This document shows positions 12,565-43,016 of a DNA stretch of 64,000 bases, piece by piece (within the stretch, counting starts at the first letter, position 1; each line of letters begins with the position of its first letter). A program made the translations under genes and the position numbers. A model generated the notes under the pieces. It ran no database searches. It saw nothing but the letters and a program-made list of their open reading frames with translations, and was not told where the DNA came from. Source of the DNA: a bacterium UBP4_UBA6127 (GTDB lineage Bacteria; UBP4; UBA4092); the NCBI GenBank assembly GCA_002428325.1, contig DIVR01000021.1:34486-98485 (forward strand), written 5' to 3'.

Positions 12565-12596
12565 TAAAAAATCGGCATCCGTTAATGGATACCGAT
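12565..12596 (-). terminator. Rho-independent terminator for pseudopilin gene 3
   Basis: On the minus strand ATCGGTATCC-attaac-GGATGCCGAT is followed by TTTTTTATGG, about 25 nt after the stop. Confidence 0.7.
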
Positions 12597-12619
12597 AAAT
12601 CAACAGGGTATAGAATGAA

Positions 12620-15045: not shown

Positions 15046-15069
15046 GTTTATTCAAACAAGGAGCAATGA

Positions 15070-16610: not shown

Positions 16611-16657
16611 AAGACCCCATGAGTCCTAAAAAAGGGTTCATGGGGTCTTTATATTAA
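16611..16657. terminator. Bidirectional intrinsic terminator between convergent genes
   Basis: 11-12 bp stem AAGACCCCATGA / TCATGGGGTCTT with a 15-nt loop. Flanked by A-rich sequence on the left and TTATATT on the right. Lies between the + strand radical SAM gene and the - strand 16679..17518 gene. Confidence 0.6.
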
Positions 16658-16678: not shown

Positions 16679-17518
16679 CTAATCTGTATCAGGGTCTCCA
16701 GGGGAACGGAGCTGGCCCCGGACATCACCAAATAAAAGGACACCCCTGACCACAGCTTCCAGGGGAACCAGTTCCTTATCAAACCAAACCTCAATATTTC
16801 CATCCCGGGATTCAAACAAGTCATCATCCATTCTTATTTTGACCAAAAACTGACGATTGGCATATTCCGTTTCTTTTCGAAGGCGGTTCTGAGCCTCTTC
16901 AATAGATGCAATATTGAGCCGAATCCGTTTTTCCTTTTTATCAGGACAGGTTTTCACATCAACAATTTTCCCTGGTTCGACTGTGCCATACACTCCAAAC
17001 CGGAGGTTATAAAAAGCACATAGAGGGTCATCATAATAAACCCCTTCAGGGATTGGATGGGTTCCATGCCCTACCAGTTTCCCTTTTTTCCATTTTTGCC
17101 AGTTCACCAGGCGTTTCTCGTAGTCATATTCAGTAATCAGCTGCCGGGAAATCTTCCCGCTCCGAATAGTGATATTCTCAAATTTTTGGGAAATCAGCCT
17201 CTTTCCATCAGGTGATACAATTACATGGGAAATGATTTTTTGAGACATATTTCTAAATAACAGTATCCGGATGAGTTTTGAGACTTTGGCTTCTAATGTT
17301 GCCACATATCCATGTTTAACAGTCGAATCTGGTTTAAAACTGAATTCAGCCTTGGCCGCATTGGGGAAAGGGAAAAAGCTCACACTATATTTCAGAGATT
17401 CTCCATCAAAATGGCTGCCAATATTTCTATGGTTTTGATATTCAACCGAATTTCCCGGCACTCCGGCCAGTAAAATCCAGACAAATAAAGACAAAGATAA
17501 AATTATTCGAAATTTCAA
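16679..17518 (-). CDS. Exported hypothetical protein (DUF3108-like)
   Basis: Signal peptide MKFRIILSLSLFVWILLAGVPG. The GESLKYSVSFFPFPNAAKAEFSFK segment resembles the GExLxYxVxxxxxPxAxxAxF pattern of DUF3108 proteins. It is the last gene of the minus-strand glycan operon. Confidence 0.45.
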   Translation of the reverse strand: MKFRIILSLSLFVWILLAGVPGNSVEYQNHRNIGSHFDGESLKYSVSFFPFPNAAKAEFSFKPDSTVKHGYVATLEAKVSKLIRILLFRNMSQKIISHVIVSPDGKRLISQKFENITIRSGKISRQLITEYDYEKRLVNWQKWKKGKLVGHGTHPIPEGVYYDDPLCAFYNLRFGVYGTVEPGKIVDVKTCPDKKEKRIRLNIASIEEAQNRLRKETEYANRQFLVKIRMDDDLFESRDGNIEVWFDKELVPLEAVVRGVLLFGDVRGQLRSPGDPDTD

Positions 17519-17603
17519 TACATTACTCCTGTGGGCATTAAAACATAATGCAGATAATTATATCTATTTTACCATCATTTCTGGGGATTCCTTAATCCTC
17601 AAC

Positions 17604-19199
17604 CTACGGTTTAAAGACAAGAACCTGTCTTCCCTCATATCCCATAACCTGAGTTTTCCCTCCCACCTGTTGTTGGAATATCGGTAAATGGTCTTTTTCA
17701 GATAGTAGTATATAGGTTCGTTTTGATGTTATGGTGGTAAAAACAAGGTCTGACCATTCATTGATATAACAGACCTTAGCGTTGGCTGGTAAATAGAAAC
17801 TGGCAGACCATCGATTTTCGGAATGGACAAGGATACCATCCTCTGGCCGAAAGTCTTTCTGAATAATCCGGCATAATTCCCGAGTGGAGTGATAATAGGT
17901 ATAATCAGTCAAAACTCCCCAATGGGATATATATGTAAAAACCAGCACCAAGACTATCATCACCCCACCAAAAGCCCATCGGTTTCCTCGAAACCATAAT
18001 CCAATATAGGGAATGATTCCCATTAAGCAAAGAAAAACAGCCTCCTGCCATAAAGGACGGCCGGTGGTTTCTATGGCTTTGGCCATCAGAATACGAATCG
18101 GCTCAATAAAATCAGCTGCCAGTATCCCAGCTCCTATTAATATCAGGATTCCGCTGAATAATTTCAACGCAATTCTATCTTTATCCCATATTTCATCCCA
18201 ATAACCCCCTAAAAGTAAGGCCAATGGCACCAAATAAGGGAGAATATAAGTGGGTAGCTTGGATTTTGAAAGTGAGAAAAAGATAAATCCGATCAGGAAC
18301 CAGATAACACATAAAAACTTATTGTCATCCTGAAACCAGCGGATTAGTTTTCCCTCCCGGTCTTCTGTTTTCAGGGTTCGCCACAGAAATAGGCTCCAGG
18401 GAAATATCCCGAAAAATACTATGGGAATGAAAAAGTAAATCGGCTCAGACCGTCTATGGATTTTGGTCAGGAATCTCAGAAGATTCTCCTGGATAAAAAA
18501 GAAATACAAATAACCGGGAAACCGCTGTTCTGCCAGTAAATACCAGGGCAGAGAAATGATAAGAACCACCAGGATTCCCCAACCCAATTTCATTTCCTTC
18601 CATCGGGAAAACTGATGGGTCTTCCATAGATAAGTTATAAGAATCAAACCCGGAAGAGCAATTCCCACCGGACCTTTGGTTAACATGGCCAATCCGCCAA
18701 AAACATATCCAACCCAGTAAAACCCCTGTTTCCGGAATTTTAATCCTCCCAGAAAACAAACAATTAATCCAGTCATGAAAAAGGTCAACGCCATATCGGT
18801 TATGACATACCGGGACAAGGTATAAAACTCCGGAAACACCATTAATATCAAGGCAGAAAGAAACCCGGTCCGAGAGTTCCACAACCAGCACCCCACCAGA
18901 TAGGTAAGCACGAGGGTTCCTAAGGCCATGAGCAGGGGAATCATCCTGGCTCCCAGCTCATTGATTCCAAAGACGTTCATGCTCAAAGCTACCATCCAGA
19001 CAAAGAAAGGAGGCTTGTCCAGATGGGGTTGATGATTCAACCAGGTAACCACCCAATCCCCAGTCTCCAAGATGGTCTTTGCCATGATGGAATATCGGGT
19101 CTCATCCCTGTCGGTCAGAGGTAATTGACTCATCCCTTGGGAAAGAAATATCATCCCTAAGATTAAAACCGATAGAATCGCATAAAAATGCTTCTTCAT
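17604..19199 (-). CDS. GT-C family membrane glycosyltransferase, ArnT/PMT-like (GT83/GT39)
   Basis: First periplasmic loop carries the ArnT-family motif DRDETRYSIMAKTILETGDW (DExRY) followed by KPPFFVWMVALSM. About 12 TM helices. The ORF track extends to 19250, but the MKKHFYAIL Met at 19199 has an AGGAG 6 nt upstream and avoids overlap with the upstream gene. Confidence 0.8.
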   Translation of the reverse strand: MKKHFYAILSVLILGMIFLSQGMSQLPLTDRDETRYSIMAKTILETGDWVVTWLNHQPHLDKPPFFVWMVALSMNVFGINELGARMIPLLMALGTLVLTYLVGCWLWNSRTGFLSALILMVFPEFYTLSRYVITDMALTFFMTGLIVCFLGGLKFRKQGFYWVGYVFGGLAMLTKGPVGIALPGLILITYLWKTHQFSRWKEMKLGWGILVVLIISLPWYLLAEQRFPGYLYFFFIQENLLRFLTKIHRRSEPIYFFIPIVFFGIFPWSLFLWRTLKTEDREGKLIRWFQDDNKFLCVIWFLIGFIFFSLSKSKLPTYILPYLVPLALLLGGYWDEIWDKDRIALKLFSGILILIGAGILAADFIEPIRILMAKAIETTGRPLWQEAVFLCLMGIIPYIGLWFRGNRWAFGGVMIVLVLVFTYISHWGVLTDYTYYHSTRELCRIIQKDFRPEDGILVHSENRWSASFYLPANAKVCYINEWSDLVFTTITSKRTYILLSEKDHLPIFQQQVGGKTQVMGYEGRQVLVFKP

Positions 19200-19233
19200 G
19201 AAATACTCCTGAAACACAACAAATTGACCGGTC

Positions 19234-20283
19234 TTAATCCTTACGCGCAATCACGATGATTTCATTTCGATGAGCCGGTATCCGGCTCAGAATATCTCTT
19301 TTCCATCGGGGGATGGAAATAGTCGGGTGTCGAAACATCTCTTGGTTAAACCCATTAAAAATAATTTCTTGATAAATGACTTTTTCAACCTTTAGCCCGG
19401 CTTTTTCCAGCATAATTCTAAAATCCCATTCGGTAAAAAACCGGTTATGTCCCCTCCAGAAACTGAAGGTCATGGCTGAAGTCTCATGAACGGCATCATA
19501 TACAAAGGGATGTAATTCCAGAAATCCGGAAAATCCTTCCCACCGATAAGCATTATCGGTAGAAAAAATCGCCACCCCATCTTTCTTCAAAACCCGGGTT
19601 ATCTCTTTAATAATTTCAAAAGGGTGATAGAGATGTTCAATCACATGGGCCATCAAAACCATATCCACTGAATTATCAGACTCCTCGAACTGTGAGGGAA
19701 TATCAGGCAACCTGAGGTCTGGCAACACATACTTATCCAGATTCACATATTCCACATCAATCCCCAATTTCGATAGAATCTCCCGCCAAGACTCCTCCAC
19801 CGGCAAGTTGGCAGTAGCTTTTATCTTCCCCTGATACCCATAAAATTCCCTCATCAGCACATCCAGTGAATAAGGATGGGCCCCAACATCCAGAAACTGA
19901 TGATTAGTTCCCTCTTTTAAATAGGGCTTCAGGGCTTCCATGGTTAACCAGAGTCGATGGGTCTGAGATACCATATAATTAGGGGTTTTCAAATAATAAC
20001 GTTCATCATAGGGAATGCCTTCGAAAGGAAGAGCCTGATGATCATCGATATATCTTACAAAATCCGGAGATGGACAGTTTAACCAATCTAAAGAAGAATC
20101 ATTAAGGGATATTTCCTCTTTTTGAGAAAGCAGCTTTTTTAAAGGGATATCTCCAAAAACTTCAACAAAAGTTCCCTGGGAAGAACCTTCAGCATATCTT
20201 GATGGCGAATCTATCCTTCCCCACATCTTTTTTATCCACTGTTTTATCATAAGTACCTCAGTACGCAAGCAGCAACTCATCAT
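19234..20283 (-). CDS. Class I SAM-dependent methyltransferase
   Basis: Motif I-like FLDVGAHPYSLD and post-II VLKKDGVAIFSTDN. An alternative start at MIKQWIKK (about 20250) is preceded by GAGG. Confidence 0.6.
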   Translation of the reverse strand: MMSCCLRTEVLMIKQWIKKMWGRIDSPSRYAEGSSQGTFVEVFGDIPLKKLLSQKEEISLNDSSLDWLNCPSPDFVRYIDDHQALPFEGIPYDERYYLKTPNYMVSQTHRLWLTMEALKPYLKEGTNHQFLDVGAHPYSLDVLMREFYGYQGKIKATANLPVEESWREILSKLGIDVEYVNLDKYVLPDLRLPDIPSQFEESDNSVDMVLMAHVIEHLYHPFEIIKEITRVLKKDGVAIFSTDNAYRWEGFSGFLELHPFVYDAVHETSAMTFSFWRGHNRFFTEWDFRIMLEKAGLKVEKVIYQEIIFNGFNQEMFRHPTISIPRWKRDILSRIPAHRNEIIVIARKD

Positions 20284-20382
20284 CTCGGGATAAAGATTCC
20301 CCCTCAGGAGAAACAGAAACTTCCATCCTAAAATGATTTTATCTTATAAACGATAGCATTAATTAGTTCTACCCATGATTCA

Positions 20383-22122
20383 TTATTCAGGTTTACGAGC
20401 TTTTATATAAAACAAATAACAGCTGTCAATTTGGTCTGAAAAATAAGGCTGTTTAACTATTTCCTCCGGTGCAAATTGCCCGGAAGCCTGAGATTCAGGC
20501 AAAGGCAGTAACCCCTTTTCTTCCATAATTTCAAATCCATGTTTTTGAAGTTTTTCCTTCAACTGGGAAGGGGTGTATTCAATTTTATGTTCAGGATGAA
20601 TGAGCCTGTGAGGAGATTCCAACCGGGTAATCAGTCGATTCGGCGTATCCAGGCAGAAATACCCCCCGGGTTTGAGTATCCGCCAGACTTCCTGAAGGCA
20701 CTGTTCACCTTCATTCTCACTGATATGTTCTATGCTTTCTCCCGACCAGACCATCTCAACTGATGAATCAGGAATAAATTCAAGTTTCGACATGGAGGAG
20801 TAGTGATATTCAATACGATTGCATTTACCATAATCGGTAACAACTCTCGCCTGCTCCGTTGCCTTCAACATTCTAATCGCTGGAGGAAGATCCACAATGA
20901 TTAACATTGACGCTTGATGGGGATATCCCATGCCATACAGGCATCCTTCCTGCCAGGAAGGAGAGGCTCCCCCCAAGTCCACAATCACATCCGCTGCGGG
21001 AAGAAGGGTTTGTATCATCTCCAGCCTTGCCTTATGAATATATTCCAGAATATTAAACCGGCCTCGCTCATATTCTTTTGATTCAAATAGTAACTGAGGA
21101 ATATCCTTTCGAGAAATCTTATCCGTTTCCAGCAAATTCTGATAATAAGCCAAGTCCTCCGCATTCGCTTTTCGACTCAGCAGGAGCCTGAAAACCATAT
21201 CAATGTATTGAGCATCATTAAAAAGGATGGGATCCATGGGAAGATATCCATCAGGCAGTATCATTAATCGTTTCTGAAGGGCCGCCAATTTATGCTGAAC
21301 CATCTGTTTTGCCCGAGAGACTTTATAATTGCTTTTTTGTGTAGGCTCTTTCACATCATTCTCCTTTTTCAACAGGACAATCATCCGTTCAATATAAAGG
21401 TCTTCCTGCCGAATTCCCTGAGTTTTTTCTGGGAGGATTTTCTTTTCAAACGCTGCCAGTTTTCGAGTCCTGGGTAAATGTTGGTAATCTTTCCAGACGG
21501 GATAAAGTCCTGCCTCTTTCCAGTGGGTTTCAAACTCGGAGACTGTCAGCCGGTTCAGTGTTACATAATGGTTCCAAGTCCAATCCTCAACGTTTTTTCG
21601 GGATTTAATTTCTTCATCAGGCAGTATCAAATGTACCCAGGGAAACTCTTCCCGGGGATAATAGTTCCATAAATGAGACCCGATTGGGCTGAAATACATT
21701 GGCACCACACTGATCAGGATAATTCCCCCCGGTGCCAGAAGTTTTGATGCGGTCAGCAGGGCTTCCCGGGGTCGGGAGATATGTTCCCAAACATCATACG
21801 AAAATATAATATCAAACTTTCTATCCCCCAATAGTTTCGGGTCTTCTATATTATCTTCAATAAATTCCAGTTTAAAAATATCTATCTTATAATGGGCAGC
21901 CAGGGTATCCAAATGGCTATCCCCATAATCGCCCAGATCAATGTCCACACCGACAGCTTTATCTGCACCCAGATAAGCAGCGGCTAATAACCCATTCCCG
22001 GTTCCGCACCCGATATCAAGGACTGTTTTCCCTTTAAAATCGATTTCAGGGCAAAACCCACCAATACTATGGAACAGGTCCATTATCCCTCGAAATCTGT
22101 TTTCCGCATCATGATACAACAT
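20383..22122 (-). CDS. Fused protein with two class I SAM-dependent methyltransferase domains
   Basis: N-terminal domain motif I VLDIGCGTGNGLLAAAYLGA...VGVDID and motif IV/post-II IIFSYDVWEHI. C-terminal domain VIVDLGGAS..., IIVDLPP and LKPGGYFCLDTPN. A helical linker of about 150 aa lies between them. Confidence 0.7.
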   Translation of the reverse strand: MLYHDAENRFRGIMDLFHSIGGFCPEIDFKGKTVLDIGCGTGNGLLAAAYLGADKAVGVDIDLGDYGDSHLDTLAAHYKIDIFKLEFIEDNIEDPKLLGDRKFDIIFSYDVWEHISRPREALLTASKLLAPGGIILISVVPMYFSPIGSHLWNYYPREEFPWVHLILPDEEIKSRKNVEDWTWNHYVTLNRLTVSEFETHWKEAGLYPVWKDYQHLPRTRKLAAFEKKILPEKTQGIRQEDLYIERMIVLLKKENDVKEPTQKSNYKVSRAKQMVQHKLAALQKRLMILPDGYLPMDPILFNDAQYIDMVFRLLLSRKANAEDLAYYQNLLETDKISRKDIPQLLFESKEYERGRFNILEYIHKARLEMIQTLLPAADVIVDLGGASPSWQEGCLYGMGYPHQASMLIIVDLPPAIRMLKATEQARVVTDYGKCNRIEYHYSSMSKLEFIPDSSVEMVWSGESIEHISENEGEQCLQEVWRILKPGGYFCLDTPNRLITRLESPHRLIHPEHKIEYTPSQLKEKLQKHGFEIMEEKGLLPLPESQASGQFAPEEIVKQPYFSDQIDSCYLFYIKARKPE

Positions 22123-22143
22123 CGGCTATTAGTTCCCTCCCCA

Positions 22144-23262
22144 TCAATCAATCATCCGATGATAGACCTCTAATGTCTGTCGGGCTGTTCTATCCCAGTT
22201 AAACCGGGCCGCTTGCATCGGGCCTTTTTGTCGAAGTGTTTGGGCTAGTATATCATTCCCCAGCACCAGAGAAATCCCTGATGCAATCTCTTCCGGAAAA
22301 TCAGGATTCACCAGGCAAGCCGCATCTCCCGCAATCTCAGGCAAAGAAGTCCGGTTACCCGCCACCACCGGCACACCACAAGCCATCGCTTCCAGTATCG
22401 GCAACCCAAATCCCTCATATAGAGAAGGAAATACAAATAATCCAGCCCCGGCATATAAAGAGGGCAAATGGGCCTGGGGTACAAATCCGGTAAACAGTAT
22501 ATCTTTCGACCAGGGAGAACGCCGGATGGATTCAGTCAGCCCATCAGCTTTCCATAAAGGAGCTCCGGTTATGACTAAAGGCTGTGAAGTCTTTTTCTCA
22601 TCCCTCAGTAGATTATAGGCTAATATTAACCTGTCCAGATTTTTCCGGGGTTCTACAGCTCCCAGGCAAAATAAATAACCCTTTTTCAAGTGATATTGAG
22701 CCAGGACTTTTTGCAGAGATTCGTCATCCTGTCCTGTCTTAAATTCTTCTGAAGGCGCCAGGTAAGCTACGGAGACCTTTTCGGAGTCGGTGGGATAATG
22801 AGATAACAATTCCTGCCGGGTAAATTCTGAATCACAGAAAATATGGGCGGCCTTCCGGCATAAGACCCTCGCCTGGATTCGACTGATGACACGATGTTTC
22901 CAGCTGACATATTCCGGCCGAAGCAATGGAATTAAATCATGCAGGGTCACCACCATCGGAATATTCGGAAACAACGGCGCATCAAAATTAGCCATCGCAT
23001 GGTATAAAGAAATCCGGTTTGCTTTTAATGCAGGGGGCAGCCCCCTATTGGACCAGACAAATCGTTGCCGGATGGGAATAGTCACCGGGTGCAGGTTGGT
23101 TGGAAGAGATTCACCCAGCTTATCCCGGGTAAACAAATAATAATCCGTTTCTGAATCCAGTTTTGCCAGCTCCAGGATTAAACGTCGGGTATAACTGGAA
23201 ATCCCGGTTCCGGCCGGATCATAGAGCCGGGCATCTAAACCGATTCGGGGAGAATTGTTCAT
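22144..23262 (-). CDS. Glycosyltransferase family 4 (GT-B, retaining)
   Basis: Signature PSLYEGFGLPILEAMACGVPVVAG (EX7E region). 372 aa. Confidence 0.85.
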   Translation of the reverse strand: MNNSPRIGLDARLYDPAGTGISSYTRRLILELAKLDSETDYYLFTRDKLGESLPTNLHPVTIPIRQRFVWSNRGLPPALKANRISLYHAMANFDAPLFPNIPMVVTLHDLIPLLRPEYVSWKHRVISRIQARVLCRKAAHIFCDSEFTRQELLSHYPTDSEKVSVAYLAPSEEFKTGQDDESLQKVLAQYHLKKGYLFCLGAVEPRKNLDRLILAYNLLRDEKKTSQPLVITGAPLWKADGLTESIRRSPWSKDILFTGFVPQAHLPSLYAGAGLFVFPSLYEGFGLPILEAMACGVPVVAGNRTSLPEIAGDAACLVNPDFPEEIASGISLVLGNDILAQTLRQKGPMQAARFNWDRTARQTLEVYHRMID

Positions 23263-23268
23263 CCCGGC

Positions 23269-26200
23269 TTACCTTTTCTTTCCCCGGGAAATTAAATCCC
23301 GGTAAAACTTCACAGTGCCTTCAGCAGCTTTCCGAAGCGAAAATTCTGTTTCAACTGATATCCGAGCCTGGTTTCCCAGAGTCTTTCTCAGTTGAGTATC
23401 CCGGGCCAGGCGAAGAATAGCTTCAGCCAGTTGGTTACTATCTTCAGGGTCCACCAGCAGTCCGGTTTTATTATCATGGATAGTCTCAGGAACAGCCCCG
23501 GCTCGAGTCCCGATAACTGCTTTCCCCAAAGCCATGGCTTCCAAAAAGATTATCCCGAATGATTCATACAGGGAGGGTGAAGTAAAAATATCACACTGGG
23601 CATAATGCGCCCACTTGCTCGGCTCATCTACTTCCCCTTCAAAATGCACTTGGGCAAACCAGGAATCTCGGCTGTGTTTTTCATAAAATGAATCTTTAAA
23701 ATATTTTCCGTTGGTAAAATCCGGGGTATCTTTTCCAACAATTATAAATTCAATCTCCGGCATGGACTTCATAACCTGAGGGATAGCTTCCAGTAAAGTA
23801 TGAACACCTTTCCGGCGTTCCAACCGTCCGACAAACAAAACCCGAACAGATTTATGATTATCCGAAACAGTCCGGGAAAGGAGTGATTCCGGCAGCTGAA
23901 TTCCCAGGGGAATAACCCGGTTTAATATTCCATTATAGGAAACCTGGTATTCAGTCCTAATGGTCTCAAGGATACTCCGGCTGATGGCAATAATGCCATC
24001 TGAGGATTCAACCAGCTTTTTTTCCAATTCTGCTGACAGGGATAAATCAGGGTCGGCTGTCCATTGATGAGTCTCTATCATCTTCTTCAAAGGGGATGAA
24101 AGCCTTAAAACCATGGGGGCAATCTTCTTCTGGGAATAAACCAGCCCTTCAATATCCCAGATGGGAGTTTCTATCACATCAGGAGGATCCATCCCAAAAA
24201 GGTCACTGATCCGTTTATTCAGCTCAAATCCGTAAGCCAGATTTTTACGGGTCACCTGATATTCGGCAGGAAGCTCAAATGGCAATCTCCCTTTACTGTT
24301 AAGAGGATGCATCTGAACCCCTTCATCCCAATAAGAAGGATAATGGGAGGTAATGACATGAACTTCATGCCCCAATCTCACCATTTCCCTGGCAAGGTCC
24401 TGAGTATAGGTTGCAATTCCCCCAAATCCCGCTGGGGGATAATTCTGGCTGGCCATGACAATCCGAAGGGGACGGTCTTTGACCTTTATCTGATTCACCT
24501 GGCGCTCCAGGAATGGTTGAAACTCCATTTCGGGATTCAGTAATTTTTCTTTGGGCTGGCAACGGGGAGGGATAAACAGGCCGGCTCCCCATCCCCAGAG
24601 GATCCCCTTGATTGAACGGCTGATAAATTTCAGAATACTGCTTGGCCGCAGAGAGCCTGGCTGTCGAAAAAAGACCATGCTCCAGAATCGAAGATAATTC
24701 CGGTAAAGGTTTTTTACCATGACATAAGGCAGACTCCGGTTACGGTGCTTAATACTGTAATAAAAGTTATCATGAATAATGATATCGAAACGCCAATCCT
24801 GCTCACTTTCCCGGATAAAACCTTTGGCAAAATGATGGTACATGACTGCCCGGGGATGATGATGGACTCTGTAACCTCTCTGAATAAGCCGGGTGCAGAT
24901 ATCTCCATCATCCGCAAAGAAACGGATATGCTCGTCAAATCCACCCAGTTCTACCAGGAGAGTCCTTCGGAAAGAACAGTTGGTTCCCATCAAGTAATTA
25001 AAGAATTCTCCCTTGGGATCATCTGGACTGATAGAGGTTGGATTCACCGGTAAAGATTGGGCAAACCGGGTGATTTTCCCCCGGCTAAACTGAACGACTT
25101 CAGAGGTAGTTCCCTTATAGACAATTCCCCCAACCGCGCCAACTTTCGGGTTACGGTATCCTTCCAAAAGGTCTGATACCCAATGAGGGTCTGCCACAGC
25201 ATCATCATCCTGAAATGCCACAATATCCCCAGCCGCCGCCATGATGCCCAGATTTCTGGAAATGGAAAGATTGTTTTTTTCATTGGGAACACGCTTGGCT
25301 CTGGGGTATGCCTCCAGGACTTGCAATGTCTCCCGGTCATTGGGATCATGGACCACTATCACTTCCATCTGGGGATGAGTCTGACGGCTTAATCCCCGAA
25401 GCGTATGCCGAAGCAACTCTGGCCGTTTGAGAGAACAGACGATCACTGACACCTTCAAATTCTGATAAGCGATTTCCTGGGATTCTCCTGAAACCATGCA
25501 AAAATCCAGGATAGATTTTATTTCTTCTTTCATCCGGTCTGGTCGGTACCGTTCCAATTCCCGGTTCTGCCGTTCCTGGGTTTCCTCTCGGAGGGATTTA
25601 TCCGTCAGTATCTTTTGCATCAGATCACTGGTTATATCCCAGTTTTTATCATTGAAAAGAAAACCGCCTTCACCCAGGGCTTCAGGAACACCCCCGGCTG
25701 AATAGGCTAAAACAGGTATGCCATGAACAAAACTCTCTACAATGGGAACACAAAATCCTTCATGTTCACTGGCAGAAATAAATAAATGGGCTGTCTTATA
25801 CAGGGCAGTCAGTTCTTCAAACCTGATTTTGCCGGTCAACAGAATTGAATCCCCCAACTTTTTCTCATTGATAAGCTGGATCAGAGACAGGTAATAAGGG
25901 TCATCCTCTTCATATTTCCCAGCCAGGATAAGTCTGGCATCTGATTGATATTTTCCCCGGTACACTTCGAATAGACGAATTAAATCATCCTGCTTTTTAT
26001 TGGGTGCAATCCTGCCTACAAATAATATATTGGTTTTGCCATCATTAAACCGGGTCTCTGTTTGAGTATCGGAAGGGGCCCGCCGCATCTTTTCAATATC
26101 CAGAACTATGGGCAGGACTCGGGTCTGTTTGAATCCGACAGATTCCAGTTCCTGCCGATTAAAATCAGAATCTCCAATCCCGGCATCAAACAGGTAAGGC

Positions 26201-26553
26201 AGTTCTTTTAGCTGCTCCCGACCCCGGGTGCAATGGTAATATACCTCTTCATTGATTCCCTTGAAATAGTCGGCCGGAGTGATATTGTGATAAATGAGAG
26301 CCCGTTTACCGGGGAAGGATTCCGCTATCGGGATTAAATCATTGTCATAATGGAAATGGAATAGAAGTAAATCTTCAGGAGTCCCTTGGCACTCTTCCAG
26401 AGGGCTATAATATTGGGACATCCGGGAATCATGGAACATGGCGCAGATTTTTGACTCATATCCCATTTGTAGAAAATATTGATGAAGCTGGACCGCATCC
26501 TGGCTGACCGCATCCCCGTAATCTAATGCTGGAATAAGCTGAAATATTCTCAA
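23269..26553 (-). CDS. Multidomain glycosyltransferase: GT4, GT2, GT4 (WbdA-like polymerising glycosyltransferase)
   Basis: 1094 aa. Domain 1 GT4 signature SEHEGFCVPIVESFVHGIPVLAYSAGGVPEAL. Domain 2 GT-A/GT2 signature VSVIVCSLKRPELLRHTLRGLSRQTHP...VVHDPND...FQDDDAV (DxD). Domain 3 GT4 signature SLYESFGIIFLEAMALGKAVIGTRAGAVPETI. Confidence 0.85.
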   Translation of the reverse strand: MRIFQLIPALDYGDAVSQDAVQLHQYFLQMGYESKICAMFHDSRMSQYYSPLEECQGTPEDLLLFHFHYDNDLIPIAESFPGKRALIYHNITPADYFKGINEEVYYHCTRGREQLKELPYLFDAGIGDSDFNRQELESVGFKQTRVLPIVLDIEKMRRAPSDTQTETRFNDGKTNILFVGRIAPNKKQDDLIRLFEVYRGKYQSDARLILAGKYEEDDPYYLSLIQLINEKKLGDSILLTGKIRFEELTALYKTAHLFISASEHEGFCVPIVESFVHGIPVLAYSAGGVPEALGEGGFLFNDKNWDITSDLMQKILTDKSLREETQERQNRELERYRPDRMKEEIKSILDFCMVSGESQEIAYQNLKVSVIVCSLKRPELLRHTLRGLSRQTHPQMEVIVVHDPNDRETLQVLEAYPRAKRVPNEKNNLSISRNLGIMAAAGDIVAFQDDDAVADPHWVSDLLEGYRNPKVGAVGGIVYKGTTSEVVQFSRGKITRFAQSLPVNPTSISPDDPKGEFFNYLMGTNCSFRRTLLVELGGFDEHIRFFADDGDICTRLIQRGYRVHHHPRAVMYHHFAKGFIRESEQDWRFDIIIHDNFYYSIKHRNRSLPYVMVKNLYRNYLRFWSMVFFRQPGSLRPSSILKFISRSIKGILWGWGAGLFIPPRCQPKEKLLNPEMEFQPFLERQVNQIKVKDRPLRIVMASQNYPPAGFGGIATYTQDLAREMVRLGHEVHVITSHYPSYWDEGVQMHPLNSKGRLPFELPAEYQVTRKNLAYGFELNKRISDLFGMDPPDVIETPIWDIEGLVYSQKKIAPMVLRLSSPLKKMIETHQWTADPDLSLSAELEKKLVESSDGIIAISRSILETIRTEYQVSYNGILNRVIPLGIQLPESLLSRTVSDNHKSVRVLFVGRLERRKGVHTLLEAIPQVMKSMPEIEFIIVGKDTPDFTNGKYFKDSFYEKHSRDSWFAQVHFEGEVDEPSKWAHYAQCDIFTSPSLYESFGIIFLEAMALGKAVIGTRAGAVPETIHDNKTGLLVDPEDSNQLAEAILRLARDTQLRKTLGNQARISVETEFSLRKAAEGTVKFYRDLISRGKKR

Positions 26554-27134
26554 AGCTTACCCTCCCGGGAAGAAACATCCATTTTATTTTTTAATTCAGC
26601 TATTTGAGCTTCCAGCCATATTCGTTTCCGGTCCATGGCCGCCAGATCATTTTCCATCCGGTATTGTAAATCATTAATTCGGGTTTCCACCGCCTGGACG
26701 GTCTTTAAGGTTTCCTCATGATAATTTACCAATGTATCCAGCAAATCCCGGAGTTGGTCCCGAGTGACCCATTCCCCAGTGATTTTCTGATTTTCATCCA
26801 ATTGTTGTTTAAACTGTTTCAGGACTTCTATGAACTGGGCATTCAATTCCCTTTGAGCCTGAAATTTGCCGGATAACGGAGCTTTCACCACCGGTTTTAA
26901 TAGTTTCTTAGTGCCTACAATCATTTTCCCCAGGACAGGCCGATGAGAATGAAAAGGACGGTCATCTCCCATAAACCAGGTTTTCATTAATTTGTTCCAT
27001 GCCCGGTCAAAAGGGGTATTAACCCGTTTTGTTGACAGGGAGGATTCATTGCTTTCCCCATTACGGTTCAGGTTTTCATGAATTAATTCAATAATGCGGT
27101 CGGCATCTAAAGGTCCATTGGCTGGCTGACTCAT
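26550..27134 (-). CDS. Coiled-coil protein of the glycan export operon (candidate chain-length/terminator accessory protein)
   Basis: 194 aa. The C-terminal about 100 residues are heptad-rich (...LNAQFIEVLKQFKQQLDENQKI...RINDLQYRMENDLAAMDRKRIWLEAQIAELKNKMD). It overlaps the glycosyltransferase start by 4 bp and lies 5 nt after wzt. No enzymatic motif. Confidence 0.45.
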   Translation of the reverse strand: MSQPANGPLDADRIIELIHENLNRNGESNESSLSTKRVNTPFDRAWNKLMKTWFMGDDRPFHSHRPVLGKMIVGTKKLLKPVVKAPLSGKFQAQRELNAQFIEVLKQFKQQLDENQKITGEWVTRDQLRDLLDTLVNYHEETLKTVQAVETRINDLQYRMENDLAAMDRKRIWLEAQIAELKNKMDVSSREGKL

Positions 27135-27138
27135 ACTA

Positions 27139-28725
27139 TCACTCCTGGGAAGAAGATGTCCGGGGAGTACTGCCCGGCCGTTCTATTTCCAATTTCCATT
27201 GATGGTCAGGCCGGATGATCCCTTTTTCCAAGGCTGATGACTTCACGGAAAATGAATATCGGCTGACTGGCTGATCCGGTATATCTGCCGGGTCATCCGC
27301 GGATTGAATCTCTAAAAAATAATCTCCGCTTAATAAGGGTAATGATTTCATCTCAAAATTCAAAATTCCCTGGGTGGCGGTTGATGGGATTTCAACCGCT
27401 TCAGCATGGGTATCTGTCTCATAGACACAAAACCCATCATCCCGAAGGATTCTTAGGGTAACAGTTGCCTTGGACGGCCGTGATAAATCCAATGAATAGG
27501 GAATCTGGATATTCATCCTCTCCCCGGTGGTAAAGAGAGTGGTTGGTGTATCTTTTCCATTCACCATCTGAATGGAGTCAATCTTAATCTGGGTAACAGA
27601 AACAGTTGTGTCTGCAGTCAATTTTTCCGTTGTGGTTAATCGAATCAATTCAGCTTCGGGAAGAGGTGTGGCTTCTGCTAACACCGGAGGCAGGTATTGA
27701 TACTGCTTATCATGGGCAAATATCCCATAATAATAGGGTTGCCCATTGGTCAGGCTCCCATCCACACATTCGGTCCCGTTAAACCAATAAACCGGTGTTC
27801 CATCTTCATGATGGATAGGATATCGGTCGGTACGGCGTACGATTTTGGTCGCCATATAATCCTTCAGGGGAGGATTGACCCAGGCCAATCGAACACATTG
27901 ATCGCCTGGCTTAGCCTTGAACCCCATGGTCTGCTGGAGCCGGGTCAGGTCTTCCGGGGCAACTCCTTCGGGGAGCAACCCTGTTTGCCGTACATAGCGT
28001 TCGATAGCCCGGAGAGCTTTATCCTTGCAAATCATATTTCCATCTATTAATAAAACGGCATCATCACACCATCGTTCCACAGCCCCCATATCATGGGTTA
28101 CCAAGATTATGGTCTTATTTTGTTCCTTAAATTTCCGCATCCGGTCTTCACACTTCCGGACAAAAGCCCCATCACCGACCGCCAGCACTTCATCAATCAA
28201 CAAGATATCGGCATCCACATGGGTGGCTACGGAAAAAGCCAACCGCATATACATCCCGGAAGAATAGGTCCGCACCGGACTGTCAATGAATTCAGATAGT
28301 TCCGCAAAATCGACAATCTCATCAAATTTTTCCTTGATTTGCTGCCGGGTCAATCCAAAAATGGACCCATTAATAAAGATATTTTCCCGGCCGGTAAAAT
28401 CAGGATGAAATCCGGCTCCCAGTTCCAGAAGGGCCGCCACTCTGCCCTGCACTTCAATCCGGCCATTATCCGGTTTCAATACCCCGGCCAGGATTTTCAA
28501 CAGGGTGCTTTTACCTGAACCGTTTTTGCCGATAATCCCCATAAACTGGCCTCTTTTTACATCAAAGGAGATGTTTTTCAAAGCCATCAAAGAGGTTTTA
28601 TCAGAAGGGTGCCGGTCCGAGGATCGAAACAGGTTGGCTACCGCCGTTTTAAGGGTACCATATTCCCCCCGTTGATACCGGCGCCGATAGGTTTTTGAGA
28701 CATTTTCGATTCGAATCACATTCAT
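27139..28725 (-). CDS. wzt: Polysaccharide ABC transporter ATP-binding protein, Wzt/KpsT-like, with extended C-terminal (Wzt_C-like) domain
   Basis: Walker A GKNGSGKST, signature YSSGMYMRLAF, Walker B ILLIDEVLAVGD. A C-terminal extension of about 270 aa is rich in beta strands. The start is taken at MNVIRIENVSKTY (28725) rather than the track's 28815, which would overlap wzm by 74 nt. Confidence 0.85.
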   Translation of the reverse strand: MNVIRIENVSKTYRRRYQRGEYGTLKTAVANLFRSSDRHPSDKTSLMALKNISFDVKRGQFMGIIGKNGSGKSTLLKILAGVLKPDNGRIEVQGRVAALLELGAGFHPDFTGRENIFINGSIFGLTRQQIKEKFDEIVDFAELSEFIDSPVRTYSSGMYMRLAFSVATHVDADILLIDEVLAVGDGAFVRKCEDRMRKFKEQNKTIILVTHDMGAVERWCDDAVLLIDGNMICKDKALRAIERYVRQTGLLPEGVAPEDLTRLQQTMGFKAKPGDQCVRLAWVNPPLKDYMATKIVRRTDRYPIHHEDGTPVYWFNGTECVDGSLTNGQPYYYGIFAHDKQYQYLPPVLAEATPLPEAELIRLTTTEKLTADTTVSVTQIKIDSIQMVNGKDTPTTLFTTGERMNIQIPYSLDLSRPSKATVTLRILRDDGFCVYETDTHAEAVEIPSTATQGILNFEMKSLPLLSGDYFLEIQSADDPADIPDQPVSRYSFSVKSSALEKGIIRPDHQWKLEIERPGSTPRTSSSQE

Positions 28726-28741
28726 TTTAGTTACAGTAACC

Positions 28742-29527
28742 TCATAATATTTCGGCAAACCGGTCTTTATGCCGGTCAAAGACCCAGAATCCAGCGGCCA
28801 GGATAGCCACCGCAATTATTCCCACTTTACCTAATGCCAGCCAATCAGGCATCTGCCCATTAAATAAAACATCCTGATAAACTCCTATCAGGGAGGACAT
28901 GGGATTGGCAACCAATATCCATTGGTATTTTTCAGGCACCATTTTTACCGGATACAGGATCGGTGTTACAAAAAACCAGAGAGTTATCAGATTGTTCAAT
29001 AAATGCTGGATATCCCGATAAAAAACATTTAAGGCGCTGGCCATTAAAACCAGCCCTTCAGTCAAAATGAATTGGATAAGTATCACAATCGGGACAACCA
29101 CCCAGGTAATGGGATGGACATGTATCCCTGCCACAATCAGAAAAACAGCTAAAATCGGCAGGCTGACCAGATAATTAAACCCAGCAGCAATGACACAGAC
29201 GGTGGGAAGAACCCTGGCTGGAAACATGGATTTGGTTACCAGCGACCCGCCCATCACAATCGAATTGGTTCCTTCTGTCAGGGATTGGGCAAACCAAAGC
29301 CAGGGTAATAGTCCGCAAAAAAGAAAGATGGCATAATTCTGCATCTCAATTCTTACATAAACGGAAAAAACCAGGCTGTAAACCAGCATCAACAACAAAG
29401 GACTCATTAAAGTCCAAAGAAAACCCAAGACTGACCCCCGGTAACGTTCCTTGAGATGGCGCGCCACCAGAGACCCCAGTAACTGCCGGTATTGATAAAT
29501 TTCCCGGATATCCTGAATGATATTCAT
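28742..29527 (-). CDS. wzm: ABC-2 type polysaccharide transporter permease, Wzm/KpsM/TagG-like
   Basis: N-terminus ...YRQLLGSLVARHLKERYRGSVLGFLWTLMSPLL is the classic Wzm family start. 6 TM helices. 261 aa. Confidence 0.85.
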   Translation of the reverse strand: MNIIQDIREIYQYRQLLGSLVARHLKERYRGSVLGFLWTLMSPLLLMLVYSLVFSVYVRIEMQNYAIFLFCGLLPWLWFAQSLTEGTNSIVMGGSLVTKSMFPARVLPTVCVIAAGFNYLVSLPILAVFLIVAGIHVHPITWVVVPIVILIQFILTEGLVLMASALNVFYRDIQHLLNNLITLWFFVTPILYPVKMVPEKYQWILVANPMSSLIGVYQDVLFNGQMPDWLALGKVGIIAVAILAAGFWVFDRHKDRFAEIL

Positions 29528-29810: not shown

Positions 29811-30731
29811 ATGAAAACATTGATTCAGGAATTAGCCCGATGGGCCTATTGGTTTCCTTTCCGATGGCTGGTTGAAAGGCTCCCCATGGGACTGACTCGC
29901 CGATTGGCAGTTTTACTTGCCCGGCTCAGTCTTTTTATCCCTCAGGGGAAGTTTGCCAAACTCCATCAGGAATTGAAATCTTCCTTCCCCGAAAAATCCG
30001 ACCCTAAAATCCGGTCTCTGGTCCATAAAACCATTGAGAATTATTACCTAAATTCATCTGAGGTCTTTCTCTATCCTTACCTGAATCCTCGGAAAATGAA
30101 AGAATTGATTGAATACCAGGGGTTGGACAAAATACAGGCCGCCCTTCAAGAAGGTAAAGGGGTCATCTTGGCCCATGGTCATTTTGGCAATGAAGAACTT
30201 CTGATGCCGGGTATCGGGTATATGGGATTCAAAACCCATCAATTAGGCAGCCGATGGGAGCCGCCTGCCCATCAGGGATGGGGTGCTTCATTGATTAATA
30301 AAATCAGAAAAAGCGCCTGGCGGCGTCGAATTGGGTATCGGGAGACATTCCCGGTTACTTTCCATTATGTGGACCATTCCCCCAGGTCGGCTATCCGATG
30401 CTTGAAATCAGGAGAATGCCTGTTGCTGGCTGTGGATGGCAGAGAAGGCCATCAATGGCTGGAAATGGATTTTCTGGGCAGAATTGCAAAGTTCTCTCCG
30501 GGATTACCTAAAATTGCCCGATTATCGGAAGCTGTAGTGTTGCCTGTCTTTATCCAGAGAATCAGCCTGACCCGTCATCGGCTTATCGTCCATGACCCCA
30601 TCCCCACTCAAAACCGGGCTGATGAGGTGATTCTTAAAGATTTCCTGGTTATCCTGGAATCCTATATCCGGAAAAATCCTGAACAATATGCCAAAGTCTA
30701 TTACCTGGTCAGAGATTTCTTTGTCGAATAA
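29811..30731 (+). CDS. Lipid A biosynthesis acyltransferase, LpxL/HtrB (lysophospholipid acyltransferase) family
   Basis: Catalytic HX4(D/E) motif in KGVILAHGHFGNEELL (HFGNEE, compare HxGNWE in LpxL). 306 aa. Divergent from wzm. Confidence 0.7.
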   Translation: MKTLIQELARWAYWFPFRWLVERLPMGLTRRLAVLLARLSLFIPQGKFAKLHQELKSSFPEKSDPKIRSLVHKTIENYYLNSSEVFLYPYLNPRKMKELIEYQGLDKIQAALQEGKGVILAHGHFGNEELLMPGIGYMGFKTHQLGSRWEPPAHQGWGASLINKIRKSAWRRRIGYRETFPVTFHYVDHSPRSAIRCLKSGECLLLAVDGREGHQWLEMDFLGRIAKFSPGLPKIARLSEAVVLPVFIQRISLTRHRLIVHDPIPTQNRADEVILKDFLVILESYIRKNPEQYAKVYYLVRDFFVE

Positions 30732-32663: not shown

Positions 32664-33935
32664 TCATTCTTTGTTCAAAATAGTTAATTGCTTAGCCGGG
32701 ATATCATATTTACAGGTATCTATTTTCCCCATTTTATTACACCTAAAGTAAATCATCTTTGAATCAGCAGAAAATCCCATAAACGTGGCATATTCCTTTT
32801 TCACTGAATCATGGGAAGCAAGGTAAACAGCATCGGCTTTTCTTGTTTGAAGATGAAGCAGATAGATATTATTACCAATATTGCCTGCCAATAATTTTCC
32901 ATTATTCGATATCTTCCAATTTTCCATTGTCAGCTCATATTCACCCGCAAAAGGGTCAACAAAACCCCAGCGAATCACCTTTTTTTGCTTCAGGCTCCCC
33001 GGAATCCACTTTTCCAGAGAATAATTTCTCTTGTTATTCTTACCCGTTTCAGCTGACAGAATATAACCAATGCCCTTAGACAGAAAAAAAGTTTTCTCGG
33101 AAGATTCCAACTCTGCTCCTGTTGAAGATAACCAATTTCTGCGAAGGGTATCTTCTGTTGTTTCACCAGTGAGGAGGTTGACTCGGAATAAAGATTTTAA
33201 AATGTAAAATGATTCCTTCCCGTTGAATAAATAGGGATTATAAGGCTGCATAGGATCCAGGGCATAACTCACGGGAGGGTTGGCATTGATTATTTCTTCC
33301 GGGATGGCATCAATGGATACTGTTGTAAAATAAACATTATTAGGTTCTAATGGGTCCAGACAGTAATGAAATATATAATCCTTTATATCTTTTGTCAGTA
33401 TCTTATTTTCCCCCGTCTTGGTATCAAGGAGATACAGGGTATCCCGGTGAGTTGAATTGAAATGATTATAGATTCTGATAAATTCGGGATCAGATGATAT
33501 TAATGAATGCCATTTATCAGGCAGTTTTCCATCCTTGGGGAGCATTGAACGAAGGATAATATGCCGAGAATCAAAACACCAGTCAGCCTCAAAGGGTGCT
33601 TCCGATTCCCACACTGTTTGTAACTCGTTTGCCTGTATATCAAAGACTTTAAGAACGAATTTCTTATATTGTCTTTCCCCATAAATCCCCGGGACCCCGG
33701 TTGTTCCATCGGTATATACGATAAATATTTTTTGATGATTGGGTGATAATTCTTCATCCCCAAACCATATGGGGAGCACCCATCCCTTATCGGGCTTTAT
33801 TACATGAACAGCTCCTTTATCATCAATGATATTAACTTCATCTTTTTCATTGATGACGAATGTATTCCCAATGGTTAACTGGTATAACAGTAGGATACAG
33901 ATAAATTGAATTTGAATTTTAAACAATTTCCCCAT
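32664..33935 (-). CDS. Secreted hypothetical protein
   Basis: Hydrophobic N-terminal signal (MGKLFKIQIQFICILLLYQLTIGNTFV). 423 aa. No recognisable catalytic motif. Beta-rich, so possibly a propeller. Confidence 0.45.
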   Translation of the reverse strand: MGKLFKIQIQFICILLLYQLTIGNTFVINEKDEVNIIDDKGAVHVIKPDKGWVLPIWFGDEELSPNHQKIFIVYTDGTTGVPGIYGERQYKKFVLKVFDIQANELQTVWESEAPFEADWCFDSRHIILRSMLPKDGKLPDKWHSLISSDPEFIRIYNHFNSTHRDTLYLLDTKTGENKILTKDIKDYIFHYCLDPLEPNNVYFTTVSIDAIPEEIINANPPVSYALDPMQPYNPYLFNGKESFYILKSLFRVNLLTGETTEDTLRRNWLSSTGAELESSEKTFFLSKGIGYILSAETGKNNKRNYSLEKWIPGSLKQKKVIRWGFVDPFAGEYELTMENWKISNNGKLLAGNIGNNIYLLHLQTRKADAVYLASHDSVKKEYATFMGFSADSKMIYFRCNKMGKIDTCKYDIPAKQLTILNKE

Positions 33936-41537: not shown

Positions 41538-43016
41538 ATGACACAGAAATCAACCACGTTGGAAGGATGGAACAACAAAGTATCTCAGTCGCCCCTGTTT
41601 ATGGGGGGGGCTGTCTTATTGGGTATTTTACTGGGTATCTGGGGTTTTATTTATCCCAGTTACCTGACCCTTATCATCCCGGCTCTGCTGATTGGATTAA
41701 CAGTTTTATTAATTCGGCCAGACTGGGCCTATCTTCTGGCTGTAGCTTCCTTACCGGTCTTAGGTCTTTACTATGTTATCCCTGTTTCTTCCAAGGGTAT
41801 CCCCGTGGCGGTATATCCCCTATATATTTTAATTATTCCAACCCTGGCCGGCTGGTTTCTCTGGCGGTGTGCCCGATTAGCCCCCTCCGCTAGGCCATCA
41901 GGATGTGAAGGCCCCCTGTTTTGCCTGGGAGGATTAACAGCCATATCCCTGTTATGGGCCCCTGTACACAATTTCAGCCGATGGCAGGTTTTGATGTTGT
42001 TTGTGAATATGTCCATCTTTTTGTCTGCCGGCTTTTATATTCAGGACCGAAAAATGATATCAAAAGTATTTAATGTCCTGGTTGTGATGGGGGTTGTCGC
42101 TTCCCTGTTTGCTTTACTCTCCAAATTCATCGGATACCATTCAGAATCGCTATTTCCTGAAACAGGCCAGACTTTTATGGCAATCTTATACACTGGGATC
42201 GCCAGCCCCGGCCAGAATGGGTCCACCGGCATGTCCGGCCGAGCCGGTGGATTGGATATTCATAACCATATAGCCACCTATCTGAATTTCTACATATTTT
42301 TAACCTTTGCCCTTTTCTGGAATCAAAAAGACAGGAATCGTCGGATTTTCTTAGGGAGCAGCCTGGGGTTAATGCTTGTTGCCCATCTGATGACCTACAG
42401 CCGAGGGGGATTACTGGGATTAATGGGGGGAATCTTTGTTTTTATGTTGCTGCAACCGGAATTTCGGAATAATTTCATAAAATATTCCAGTTATGCCTTT
42501 ATCGTGTTGGTGGTGCTTTTTATATTGATTTATGGCAAAAACTTCGGCCAGGCTTTACAAAGAATTACTGCTGTATTTGGGGAAACAGGGGTCAGCGGCA
42601 CCAGTTCCCGGAAAGAAATCTGGTTAGATGGATTCAAACTTCTCAAAGAGTCTCCCTTGCTGGGAGCAGGAATTGGGGGATTCAGGACAATTTATCATCA
42701 CCCTCATGCCCATAATATCTATTTTTCTGTTCTCTTTGATTTAGGCCTGATTGGCTTCATGATATTGGGATGGTTCATCAGCAGACTGGTTAGAATTGTT
42801 CACTTAAGTTTAGCTACAATCCGGCAGGCAGAAGACTTGATGATGGCAAGGGCTTTCACTGGAGCTTTAGTAGCCTTTTCCATTCATGCTCTGGTAGATT
42901 TTGATTTCACCTGGGTCCAGTTTATCTGGGGAATCCTGGGTATCGGACTGGCCATGCTCAGGCTCAGCCGGGAAGAGGCAACTTCCAGCCCTTTTAACGA
43001 TTCCCCTGCCAACTAA
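41538..43016 (+). CDS. O-antigen ligase / polymerase family protein (Wzy_C domain)
   Basis: 492 aa, about 12 TM. Conserved Wzy_C region MTYSRGGLLGLMGGI and HAHNIYFSVLFDLGLIGF (compare HNSYLE..GIIG in WaaL/PglL). Confidence 0.7.
   Translation: MTQKSTTLEGWNNKVSQSPLFMGGAVLLGILLGIWGFIYPSYLTLIIPALLIGLTVLLIRPDWAYLLAVASLPVLGLYYVIPVSSKGIPVAVYPLYILIIPTLAGWFLWRCARLAPSARPSGCEGPLFCLGGLTAISLLWAPVHNFSRWQVLMLFVNMSIFLSAGFYIQDRKMISKVFNVLVVMGVVASLFALLSKFIGYHSESLFPETGQTFMAILYTGIASPGQNGSTGMSGRAGGLDIHNHIATYLNFYIFLTFALFWNQKDRNRRIFLGSSLGLMLVAHLMTYSRGGLLGLMGGIFVFMLLQPEFRNNFIKYSSYAFIVLVVLFILIYGKNFGQALQRITAVFGETGVSGTSSRKEIWLDGFKLLKESPLLGAGIGGFRTIYHHPHAHNIYFSVLFDLGLIGFMILGWFISRLVRIVHLSLATIRQAEDLMMARAFTGALVAFSIHALVDFDFTWVQFIWGILGIGLAMLRLSREEATSSPFNDSPAN

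Follow-up and report, generated by a model that had tools for sequence, protein, structure and literature searches.

We analysed a 64,000-nucleotide (nt) stretch of DNA from the bacterium UBP4_UBA6127 (GenBank assembly GCA_002428325.1, contig DIVR01000021.1, positions 34,486 to 98,485 of the forward strand), hereafter the window. Its operon of nine co-directional minus-strand genes (29527..16679) very probably encodes an ATP-binding cassette (ABC) transporter-dependent glycan pathway of the O8/O9a/O12 logical type. The operon brings two lineage-specific variations to this known pathway: a small coiled-coil protein that looks like the ruler of a chain terminator detached from its enzyme, and a Wzt extension composed of two domains. 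As its product we expect a polyprenol-linked surface glycan, most likely the O-polysaccharide of lipopolysaccharide in an uncultured anaerobic diderm, and the exported surface polysaccharide is probably methylated. The genes, in the order of transcription, are:

28742..29527, minus strand: wzm, ABC-2 permease, 261 amino acids (aa) (PF01061, ABC2_membrane, 55 bits)
27139..28725, minus strand: wzt, 528 aa, with a nucleotide-binding domain, a ~100-aa insert and a carbohydrate-binding domain (ABC_tran, PF00005, and Wzt_C)
26550..27134, minus strand: 194-aa protein, with an N-terminal motif (residues ~41-95) and a coiled coil (~91-192) (no Pfam or NCBIfam family match)
23269..26553, minus strand: GT4-GT2-GT4 glycosyltransferase (GT), 1094 aa, presumed polymerase (Glycos_transf_1; Glycos_transf_2; Glyco_transf_4 and Glycos_transf_1)
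22144..23262, minus strand: stand-alone GT4 glycosyltransferase, 372 aa (Pfam)
20383..22083, minus strand: double methyltransferase (methyltransferase, DUF4214, methyltransferase), 566 aa, or 579 aa from an upstream ATG (Pfam)
19234..20250, minus strand: single methyltransferase, 338 aa (up to 349 aa) (Methyltransf_23/11, residues 197-301)
17604..19199, minus strand: ArnT-like GT-C glycosyltransferase, 531 aa (PMT_2/PMT)
16679..17518, minus strand: exported DUF3108 protein, 279 aa (PF11306, 36.9 bits)

All nine open reading frames (ORFs) of the original prediction were recovered, and Pfam and NCBIfam searches matched each of its domain calls. Several gene boundaries were revised. Specifically, the 558-aa length formerly given for wzt corresponds to an ORF extended to an upstream TTG, while public assemblies call a protein of 528 aa with its ATG at 28725, 16 nt past the wzm stop codon. 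With the gene starts of public assemblies, the distances between successive genes are 16, 4, -4, 6, 60, 132, 34 and 85 nt, instead of the 4-100 nt reported before, and the several start/stop overlaps are reduced to a single true one, the ATGA common to the 194-aa and 1094-aa genes (4 nt).

The operon recurs as a whole. It is present in identical form in two other assemblies (L001 and L002), and locus L003 has the same nine genes at 64-79% protein identity, showing that its genes form a genuine, conserved unit rather than standing together by chance. All of its occurrences are metagenomic. In the sister clusters L004 and L006, the latter a locus of a metagenome-assembled genome (MAG), a core of Wzm, Wzt, the small coiled-coil protein and the tri-module GT is kept at 29-59% protein identity, and Wzm orthologues are 58-79% identical across L003-L006. 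The gene order of L006 is Wzm, Wzt, ankyrin, 194-aa-protein orthologue, tri-module GT, ankyrin, GT-C and DUF3108; the cluster has no methyltransferases and no stand-alone GT4. The methyltransferase genes and the additional GT4 gene are accessory to the cluster. Ankyrin-repeat genes lie between wzt and the small-protein gene or after the polymerase gene in L005 (11554-12261) and L006 (8652-9359 and 13501-14196), and another precedes the GT-C gene in L004 (18932-19624), whereas the window operon contains none.

The 1094-aa enzyme is composed of a GT4 module (residues ~1-345), a GT2 module (366-620) and a second GT4 module (697-1090), and it is the presumed chain polymerase. In the PDB, the GT4 modules match PimA/GlgA/MshA-type enzymes, while the GT2 module matches mainly soluble polymerising GT2s (chondroitin and heparosan synthases) and PglI-type enzymes. 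The orthologue in L006 has 1120 aa and 55% identity. In L004, the same sequence is divided between two genes (554 and 521 aa), so that the window enzyme represents a fusion. Three modules in one polymerase had been considered unusual; polymerases of this class use one GT module per linkage, WbdA has two or three, and WbdA of Klebsiella pneumoniae O5 already has three (PMC11231755). The stand-alone GT4 is 75% identical to its orthologue in L003 and 51% to that in L004. The latter (L004 15996-17119, plus strand) appears as two ORFs of 108 and 266 aa, which could reflect a frameshift or an assembly error.

The three-part Wzt and the small coiled-coil protein

Wzt of the window is built of three parts. 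The nucleotide-binding domain (residues 1-245) matches Aquifex Wzt (6amx and 8dku) with an E value of 1e-60. The long C-terminal extension noted in the original prediction does contain a carbohydrate-binding domain, but it consists of two domains rather than one:

27652..27933, minus strand: Wzt insert, residues ~265-358, beta-rich (alignment, AF2)
27181..27603, minus strand: Wzt carbohydrate-binding domain, residues ~375-515 (PF14524, AF2, Foldseek)

The binding domain scores 36.7 bits with PF14524 (Wzt_C), against a cut-off of 30.4. In the AlphaFold2 (AF2) model, which spans residues 246-528, it is predicted with a confidence score (pLDDT) mostly above 90, and the top 15 Foldseek matches of this model are all Wzt structures. 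The best of them, O12 (5hnp/5hno), Aquifex (6o14 and 8dky) and O9a (2r5o), have target template-modelling (TM) scores of 0.56-0.74; 8dky is the Aquifex binding domain with 3-O-methyl-mannose bound. The beta-sandwich of the Wzt type on which the original prediction relied in proposing a comparison with O9a is thus present. In addition, the C-terminal domain carries T439, G453, Y469, F492, G502 and W510, which are invariant across the aligned Wzt relatives.

Aquifex aeolicus WzmWzt (6amx, 8dku, 8dky) provides the closest solved nucleotide-binding domain, and its binding domain is among the best structural matches. The two binding domains, however, are only ~13-14% identical, so that ligand specificity is not transferable from one to the other, and Aquifex Wzt, with 404 aa, has no such insert. 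Comparison of the window with the sister clusters gives identities of 67% for the nucleotide-binding domain and 54-61% for the insert, but only 22-26% for the binding domain. Such strong divergence would be expected of the part that determines specificity. The domain may read a methyl cap.

The ~100-aa insert is confined, in the alignment, to four 90% clusters (P0001-P0004), which are the only ones with the 518-528-aa architecture among 8000 Wzt relatives scored; the remaining relatives have 405-480 aa. The insert has no Pfam match even at E<=10. Its sequence shows an Fn3-like pattern, and AF2 predicts beta strands with a pLDDT of only 45-70; Foldseek gives weak matches to tandem FnIII domains. 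A copy with 40% identity to the insert occurs within a 208-aa signal-anchored protein (L009 7238-7864, minus strand). The gene of this protein and that of a double-methyltransferase orthologue lie ~2 kb apart, on a contig from the assembly that also contains L004. A homologue search with the C-terminal fragment of Wzt alone returned nothing, while the full-length query gave a 99% match; we attribute the empty result to the word index and not to biology.

The gene following wzt encodes the 194-aa protein, and its earlier assignment as a coiled coil was borne out. AF2 predicts an all-helical structure with helices at residues 91-115 and 122-192 (for most of the second, the pLDDT is 75-94), and the sequence has a heptad-like a/d pattern, with an a/d occupancy of 0.5-0.88 compared with ~0.3 for overall hydrophobic content. 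The protein has no transmembrane segment. PADLOC anti-phage models matched neither this protein nor the tri-module GT nor the DUF3108 protein. In L003, L004, L005 and L006, the gene of an orthologue comes after wzt and directly upstream of the polymerase gene. The orthologues have lengths of 194, 199, 205 and 346 aa, with a conserved N-terminal region and a variable helical tail. The family is very rare: an exhaustive phmmer search with residues 1-110 found 8 proteins among 1.84 billion representatives, and a metagenome scan with an alignment of the small protein added one further locus only, of the L006 type.

Three of these eight proteins, all of them distant relatives and metagenomic (P0251, P0254 and P0255), contain the motif, then a coiled coil, and then a class I methyltransferase at the C terminus, which is absent from the window protein. 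The motif common to the 194-aa protein and its fused relatives reads W..G..RPF.SHR..LG...V..KK...P.VK.PL, with W53, P60, H64, R65, G69, K76, P81 and P86 invariant. Moreover, the gene order around P0254 is Wzm, Wzt, P0254 and GT4, placing it where the window has the 194-aa protein, and P0254 is labelled 'O-antigen chain-terminating methyltransferase' by JGI. Since the same motif and coiled coil are fused to a methyltransferase in these proteins, the 194-aa protein looks, from homology and gene order, like the detached anchor-plus-ruler part of a coiled-coil methyltransferase terminator, without the enzyme. In P0251 (574 aa, Logan contig), three tandem copies of the N-terminal motif precede the coiled coil and methyltransferase. 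The Wzt encoded beside P0254 (L013 616-2301, plus strand) has 562 aa, of which ~160 residues past Wzt_C have no assignment; it is another Wzt with an extra domain, at a position other than that of the window insert.

The cluster resembles the O8/O9a systems of E. coli (O5/O3 of K. pneumoniae) in its ABC-2 permease and Wzt binding domain of the same fold (2r5o), in one large multi-module GT, as is WbdA (PMC11231755), and in the presence of S-adenosylmethionine-dependent methyltransferases and a coiled-coil protein within one cluster. It differs in the GT2 module of the polymerase, the ~100-aa insert of Wzt, and the GT-C and DUF3108 genes of the unit. It also differs in the terminator. In all studied systems of this type, the enzyme that ends the chain sits at a coiled-coil ruler's distal end, and in WbdD the other end of the coiled coil carries the membrane-binding, polymerase-recruiting region (PMC11231755). 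Here, the coiled-coil protein stands alone without a catalytic domain, and the methyltransferases are encoded by separate genes. The fused relatives are also reversed with respect to WbdD, in which an N-terminal enzyme is followed by the coiled coil and the C-terminal membrane- and polymerase-binding region (PMC11231755): in them the motif comes first and the methyltransferase last. The O8/O9a logic of the original prediction holds for the transporter, the Wzt binding domain, the multi-module polymerase, the coiled-coil protein and the methyltransferases, but not for a sequence match to WbdD or for the WbdD architecture of enzyme and coiled coil in one protein. A similar relation exists to the terminator-rulers of K. 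pneumoniae O4, O7 and O12 (ORF7-O4, ORF6-O7 and WbbB), whose catalytic modules are likewise spread variably over one or several polypeptides, with the coiled-coil ruler as the marker of the strategy; the coiled-coil protein of O7 bears a methyltransferase (PMC11231755), whereas that of the window carries no enzyme.

A bolder possibility, which we consider doubtful, is that the 194-aa protein is a free-standing, exchangeable ruler. Its N-terminal motif would hold the polymerase to the membrane, while separate terminators would be positioned non-covalently by its coiled coil; chain length would be set by coiled-coil length whichever terminator is engaged, and the Fn3-like insert of Wzt would belong to this complex as an additional module for docking or recognition. 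The terminators would then be methyltransferases in this lineage and something else in sister lineages with ankyrin-repeat partners, and the coiled coil would measure ~100 residues here and ~250 in the 346-aa orthologue.

The GT-C and DUF3108 partners

The penultimate gene encodes a GT-C enzyme that aligns with ArnT (GT83, the 4-amino-arabinose transferase of lipid A; 5ezm) over residues 14-389 (376 residues; E 4.6e-47). ArnT is its only solved-structure match at E<=0.001. The two enzymes are of similar length, and the aligned motifs DE.RY, (E/D)KPPF, (L/T)DM, IH.RS (HRRS in the window) and SKLP.Y are conserved; we take these to be the periplasmic-loop and donor-phosphate-binding residues of ArnT. 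However, the enzyme scores 181.3 bits with the NCBIfam ArnT equivalog NF009784, far below the cut-off of 567, indicating that it is not an ArnT orthologue, and the window showed no genes of the arn donor pathway.

Orthologues of the GT-C enzyme are present in L003 (70% identity), L004 (47%) and L006 (41%). In L003 and L006, as in the window, the DUF3108 gene directly follows the GT-C gene, while in L004 the GT-C gene is located 8 kb away from the cluster, beyond a gene of opposite orientation. The DUF3108 protein has a hydrophobic, signal-peptide-like N terminus and no sequence match to a solved structure; DUF3108 is reported to form an outer-membrane beta-barrel of the YmcC fold (PMC4364669). 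The two genes are conserved partners of the glycan cluster, and the GT-C enzyme may act on a glycan side chain or in lipid A modification.

The nearest precedent for a GT-C enzyme in such clusters is periplasmic post-polymerisation glycosylation (PMC11127046). In three-component periplasmic systems (GtrA/GtrB/Gtr*; Citrobacter ORF12-15 with GT136, PMC11127046), a GT-C enzyme is likewise encoded within an ABC-transporter O-polysaccharide cluster, and by this likeness a polyprenyl-phosphate-linked donor outside the cytoplasm would be expected. The window operon differs from these systems in containing neither a lipid-donor synthase nor a flippase, in the ArnT/PMT_2-like type of its GT-C enzyme and in the pairing with DUF3108. 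The GT2 module of the polymerase is not favoured as the maker of such a donor, DPM synthase being only a weak match.

Two genes outside the operon bear on the role of the GT-C enzyme:

29811..30731, plus strand: lipid A acyltransferase-family gene (LpxL/LpxM, PatA family), divergent from wzm (PF03279, 94.6 bits)
41538..43016, plus strand: WaaL-like O-antigen ligase family gene (Wzy_C), candidate ligase (PF04932, 76 bits)

The divergent acyltransferase-family gene keeps its position in two relatives (L003 7999-8919 and L004 8120-9046), suggesting a functional link to the cluster. The WaaL-like gene, 12 kb away, makes a ligase role for the GT-C enzyme unnecessary; it weakens the earlier proposal that this enzyme transfers the finished product, and we do not favour the enzyme as a replacement O-antigen ligase. 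Adjoining the WaaL-like gene are a GH39 gene and the second GT-C gene of the PMT_2 family (38470-39864, minus strand).

It is possible, but in our view not probable, that GT-C and DUF3108 form a lipid A or outer-membrane modification unit that is merely co-transcribed and has no part in this glycan. The exclusive structural match to ArnT with its conserved donor-binding motifs, the acyltransferase-family gene as a conserved neighbour, the remote and separated position of the GT-C gene in L004, and the lack of a donor synthase or flippase in the operon would all suit such a unit. On the other hand, the two genes directly follow the glycan genes in L003 and L006, and the GT-C gene remains linked in L004, despite identities of 41-50%, and the enzyme falls well short of ArnT orthology (181 against 567 bits).

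Methyltransferases and proposed chain termination

The double methyltransferase has a recognisable motif I in both of its domains (VLDIGCGTG in domain 1 and VDLGG in domain 2). Its C-terminal DUF4214-plus-methyltransferase half belongs to a widespread family of ~315 aa, and relatives of this module in Oscillochloris and an acidobacterial MAG have 41-43% identity over ~285 residues. In Oscillochloris trichoides (L010), the family member lies within a Wzt(Wzt_C)-methyltransferase-GT4-GT2-GT4x2 cluster, and in the acidobacterial MAG (L012) within a Wzm/GT4/methyltransferase cluster; two further members (P0175 and P0202) are fused to GT4 domains, and a Nostoc member is isolated. The original prediction would have been refuted in part by a grouping with small-molecule or lipid methyltransferases unrelated to glycan capping; instead, these relatives lie in Wzm/Wzt/GT4 clusters of other phyla, a location compatible with capping as well as with internal methylation. 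Two methyltransferase genes in one cluster, previously thought unusual, are present in Oscillochloris and the acidobacterial MAG too. Of the window domains, domain 2 comes closest to the methyltransferase that the fused rulers carry (28% identity, E 8e-10, in pairwise comparison with three sequences). Among the loci examined, the single methyltransferase occurs only in L001-L003, and its N-terminal ~130 aa have no assignment.

Taken together, these features are compatible with the following pathway. A chain would be built in the cytoplasm by the GT4-GT2-GT4 fusion and the stand-alone GT4, whose activities are predicted from domains that do not specify the sugars. The three methyltransferase domains would O-methylate the glycan, most plausibly as a chain-terminating cap at the non-reducing end. 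The 194-aa protein, whose gene is translationally coupled to the polymerase gene, would be the non-catalytic part of the terminator, contributing a membrane-proximal or polymerase-docking motif and a coiled-coil spacer of ~100 residues. The Wzt binding domain would recognise the finished terminus, and Wzm/Wzt would export the chain. In the periplasm, the GT-C enzyme, with the DUF3108 protein, would add a sugar donated by polyprenyl phosphate to the glycan or to lipid A, and the WaaL-like ligase would attach the chain to lipid A-core. We hold the general pathway with greater assurance than this full mechanism of methyl cap, reader and ruler, which is our best explanation and which we favour with moderate confidence.

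A number of points weigh against the full mechanism. The 194-aa protein is also kept in clusters without methyltransferase genes (L006 and L004), and for this reason its partner may be the polymerase rather than a methyl-terminator; the organism of L004 probably encodes a double methyltransferase elsewhere, as the same assembly has one with 50% identity on a different contig (L009). No sequence match between the methyltransferases and WbdD was detectable: when the double methyltransferase was compared with all PDB chains by phmmer (E<=0.01), WbdD was not among the 60 of 61 matches listed, which were only generic class I methyltransferases, and Pfam found no kinase domain. The substrates of class I methyltransferases are not assignable from sequence. 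The N-terminal half of the 194-aa protein and the Wzt insert are both modelled by AF2 at low confidence. Neither an initiating gene of the WecA/WbaP type nor a sugar-nucleotide pathway was found in the operon or among the scanned window ORFs of at least 150 aa, the operon encodes neither a flippase nor a polyprenyl-phosphate sugar synthase that could serve the GT-C enzyme, and by sequence the GT2 module appears closer to soluble polymerising GT2s than to DPM1/GtrB types. Finally, activity and product are predictions from the genes of an uncultured organism.

We also considered whether cap and reader co-vary, as the lack of methyltransferases in L004 and L006 together with the diverged Wzt domain might suggest. 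The double methyltransferase on L009 weakens this idea, as the divergence of the binding domain does not track the simple presence or absence of the enzyme.

An alternative that we regard as unlikely is that the methyltransferases decorate internal residues, yielding a polymethylated glycan without termination, while the small protein only tethers or organises the polymerase and the Wzt domain recognises another terminal or backbone feature. Three methyltransferase domains do exceed the need of a single cap, the small protein adjoins the polymerase in L006 and L004 with no methyltransferase gene in the cluster, and its gene is translationally coupled to the GT gene and not to a methyltransferase gene. 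Against this stand the junction of the same motif and coiled coil with a methyltransferase in P0251, P0254 and P0255 in a wzt-adjacent position, the fact that coiled-coil proteins carry the terminator in all studied systems (PMC11231755), and the defined terminal signal implied by a Wzt with a binding domain.

If the 194-aa protein does work as an enzyme-free ruler, spacing and catalysis would be separable modules joined by protein contacts, such clusters could be recognised more broadly in the genomes of uncultured bacteria, and coiled-coil length would offer a simple handle for engineering glycan chain length, with the conserved N-terminal motif as a sequence signature for finding such terminators or rulers. 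In other respects, the operon is an ordinary example of a well-understood pathway.

Neighbouring genes of the window

The operon may end at a hairpin downstream of the DUF3108 gene, identified by a consensus scan only:

16611..16627, minus strand: terminator-like hairpin, 52 nt past the last stop codon, possible operon end

Site numbers from the promoter and terminator scans of the region were not above the shuffled expectation, and no tRNA or Rfam match was found in the window.

Downstream of the operon, the window has three prepilin-type genes (N_methyl, T2SS-G-like; 10706-13225, minus strand), as does L006 (17114-19820). In L006 the pseudopilin genes directly follow DUF3108, while in the window two radical-SAM genes on the opposite strand lie between them. 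That the product is another glycoconjugate, on pilin-like or other proteins or as a lipoglycan, with the GT-C enzyme as final transferase, is improbable: the pseudopilin genes just beyond the operon in the window and L006 and the inclusion of protein O-mannosyltransferases in the PMT_2 family are countered by the Wzy_C ligase-family gene nearby, by a best GT-C match to ArnT and not to a protein mannosyltransferase, by the oppositely oriented genes that part pseudopilins from operon in the window, and by the chance that pilin-like genes are simply numerous in the lineage.

ORFs of 304-603 aa without a Pfam family (E<=1e-3 to 1e-4) are located at 4888-6366, 6813-8624, 32664-33935 and 43022-45078. 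Sugar activation is represented in the window only by genes outside the operon, namely those for galactokinase and galactose-1-phosphate uridylyltransferase (1422-3650, minus strand) and for an NAD-dependent sugar epimerase/dehydratase (60388-61518, minus strand). MatE (54061-55506) and EamA (47086-48024) genes are found elsewhere in the window. There are three B12-binding radical-SAM genes (13477-16590 and 35447-36652, plus strand), and HypF and HypD genes are also present; together with the lipid A acyltransferase, Wzy_C and pseudopilin genes, they suggest that the organism is an anaerobic diderm.

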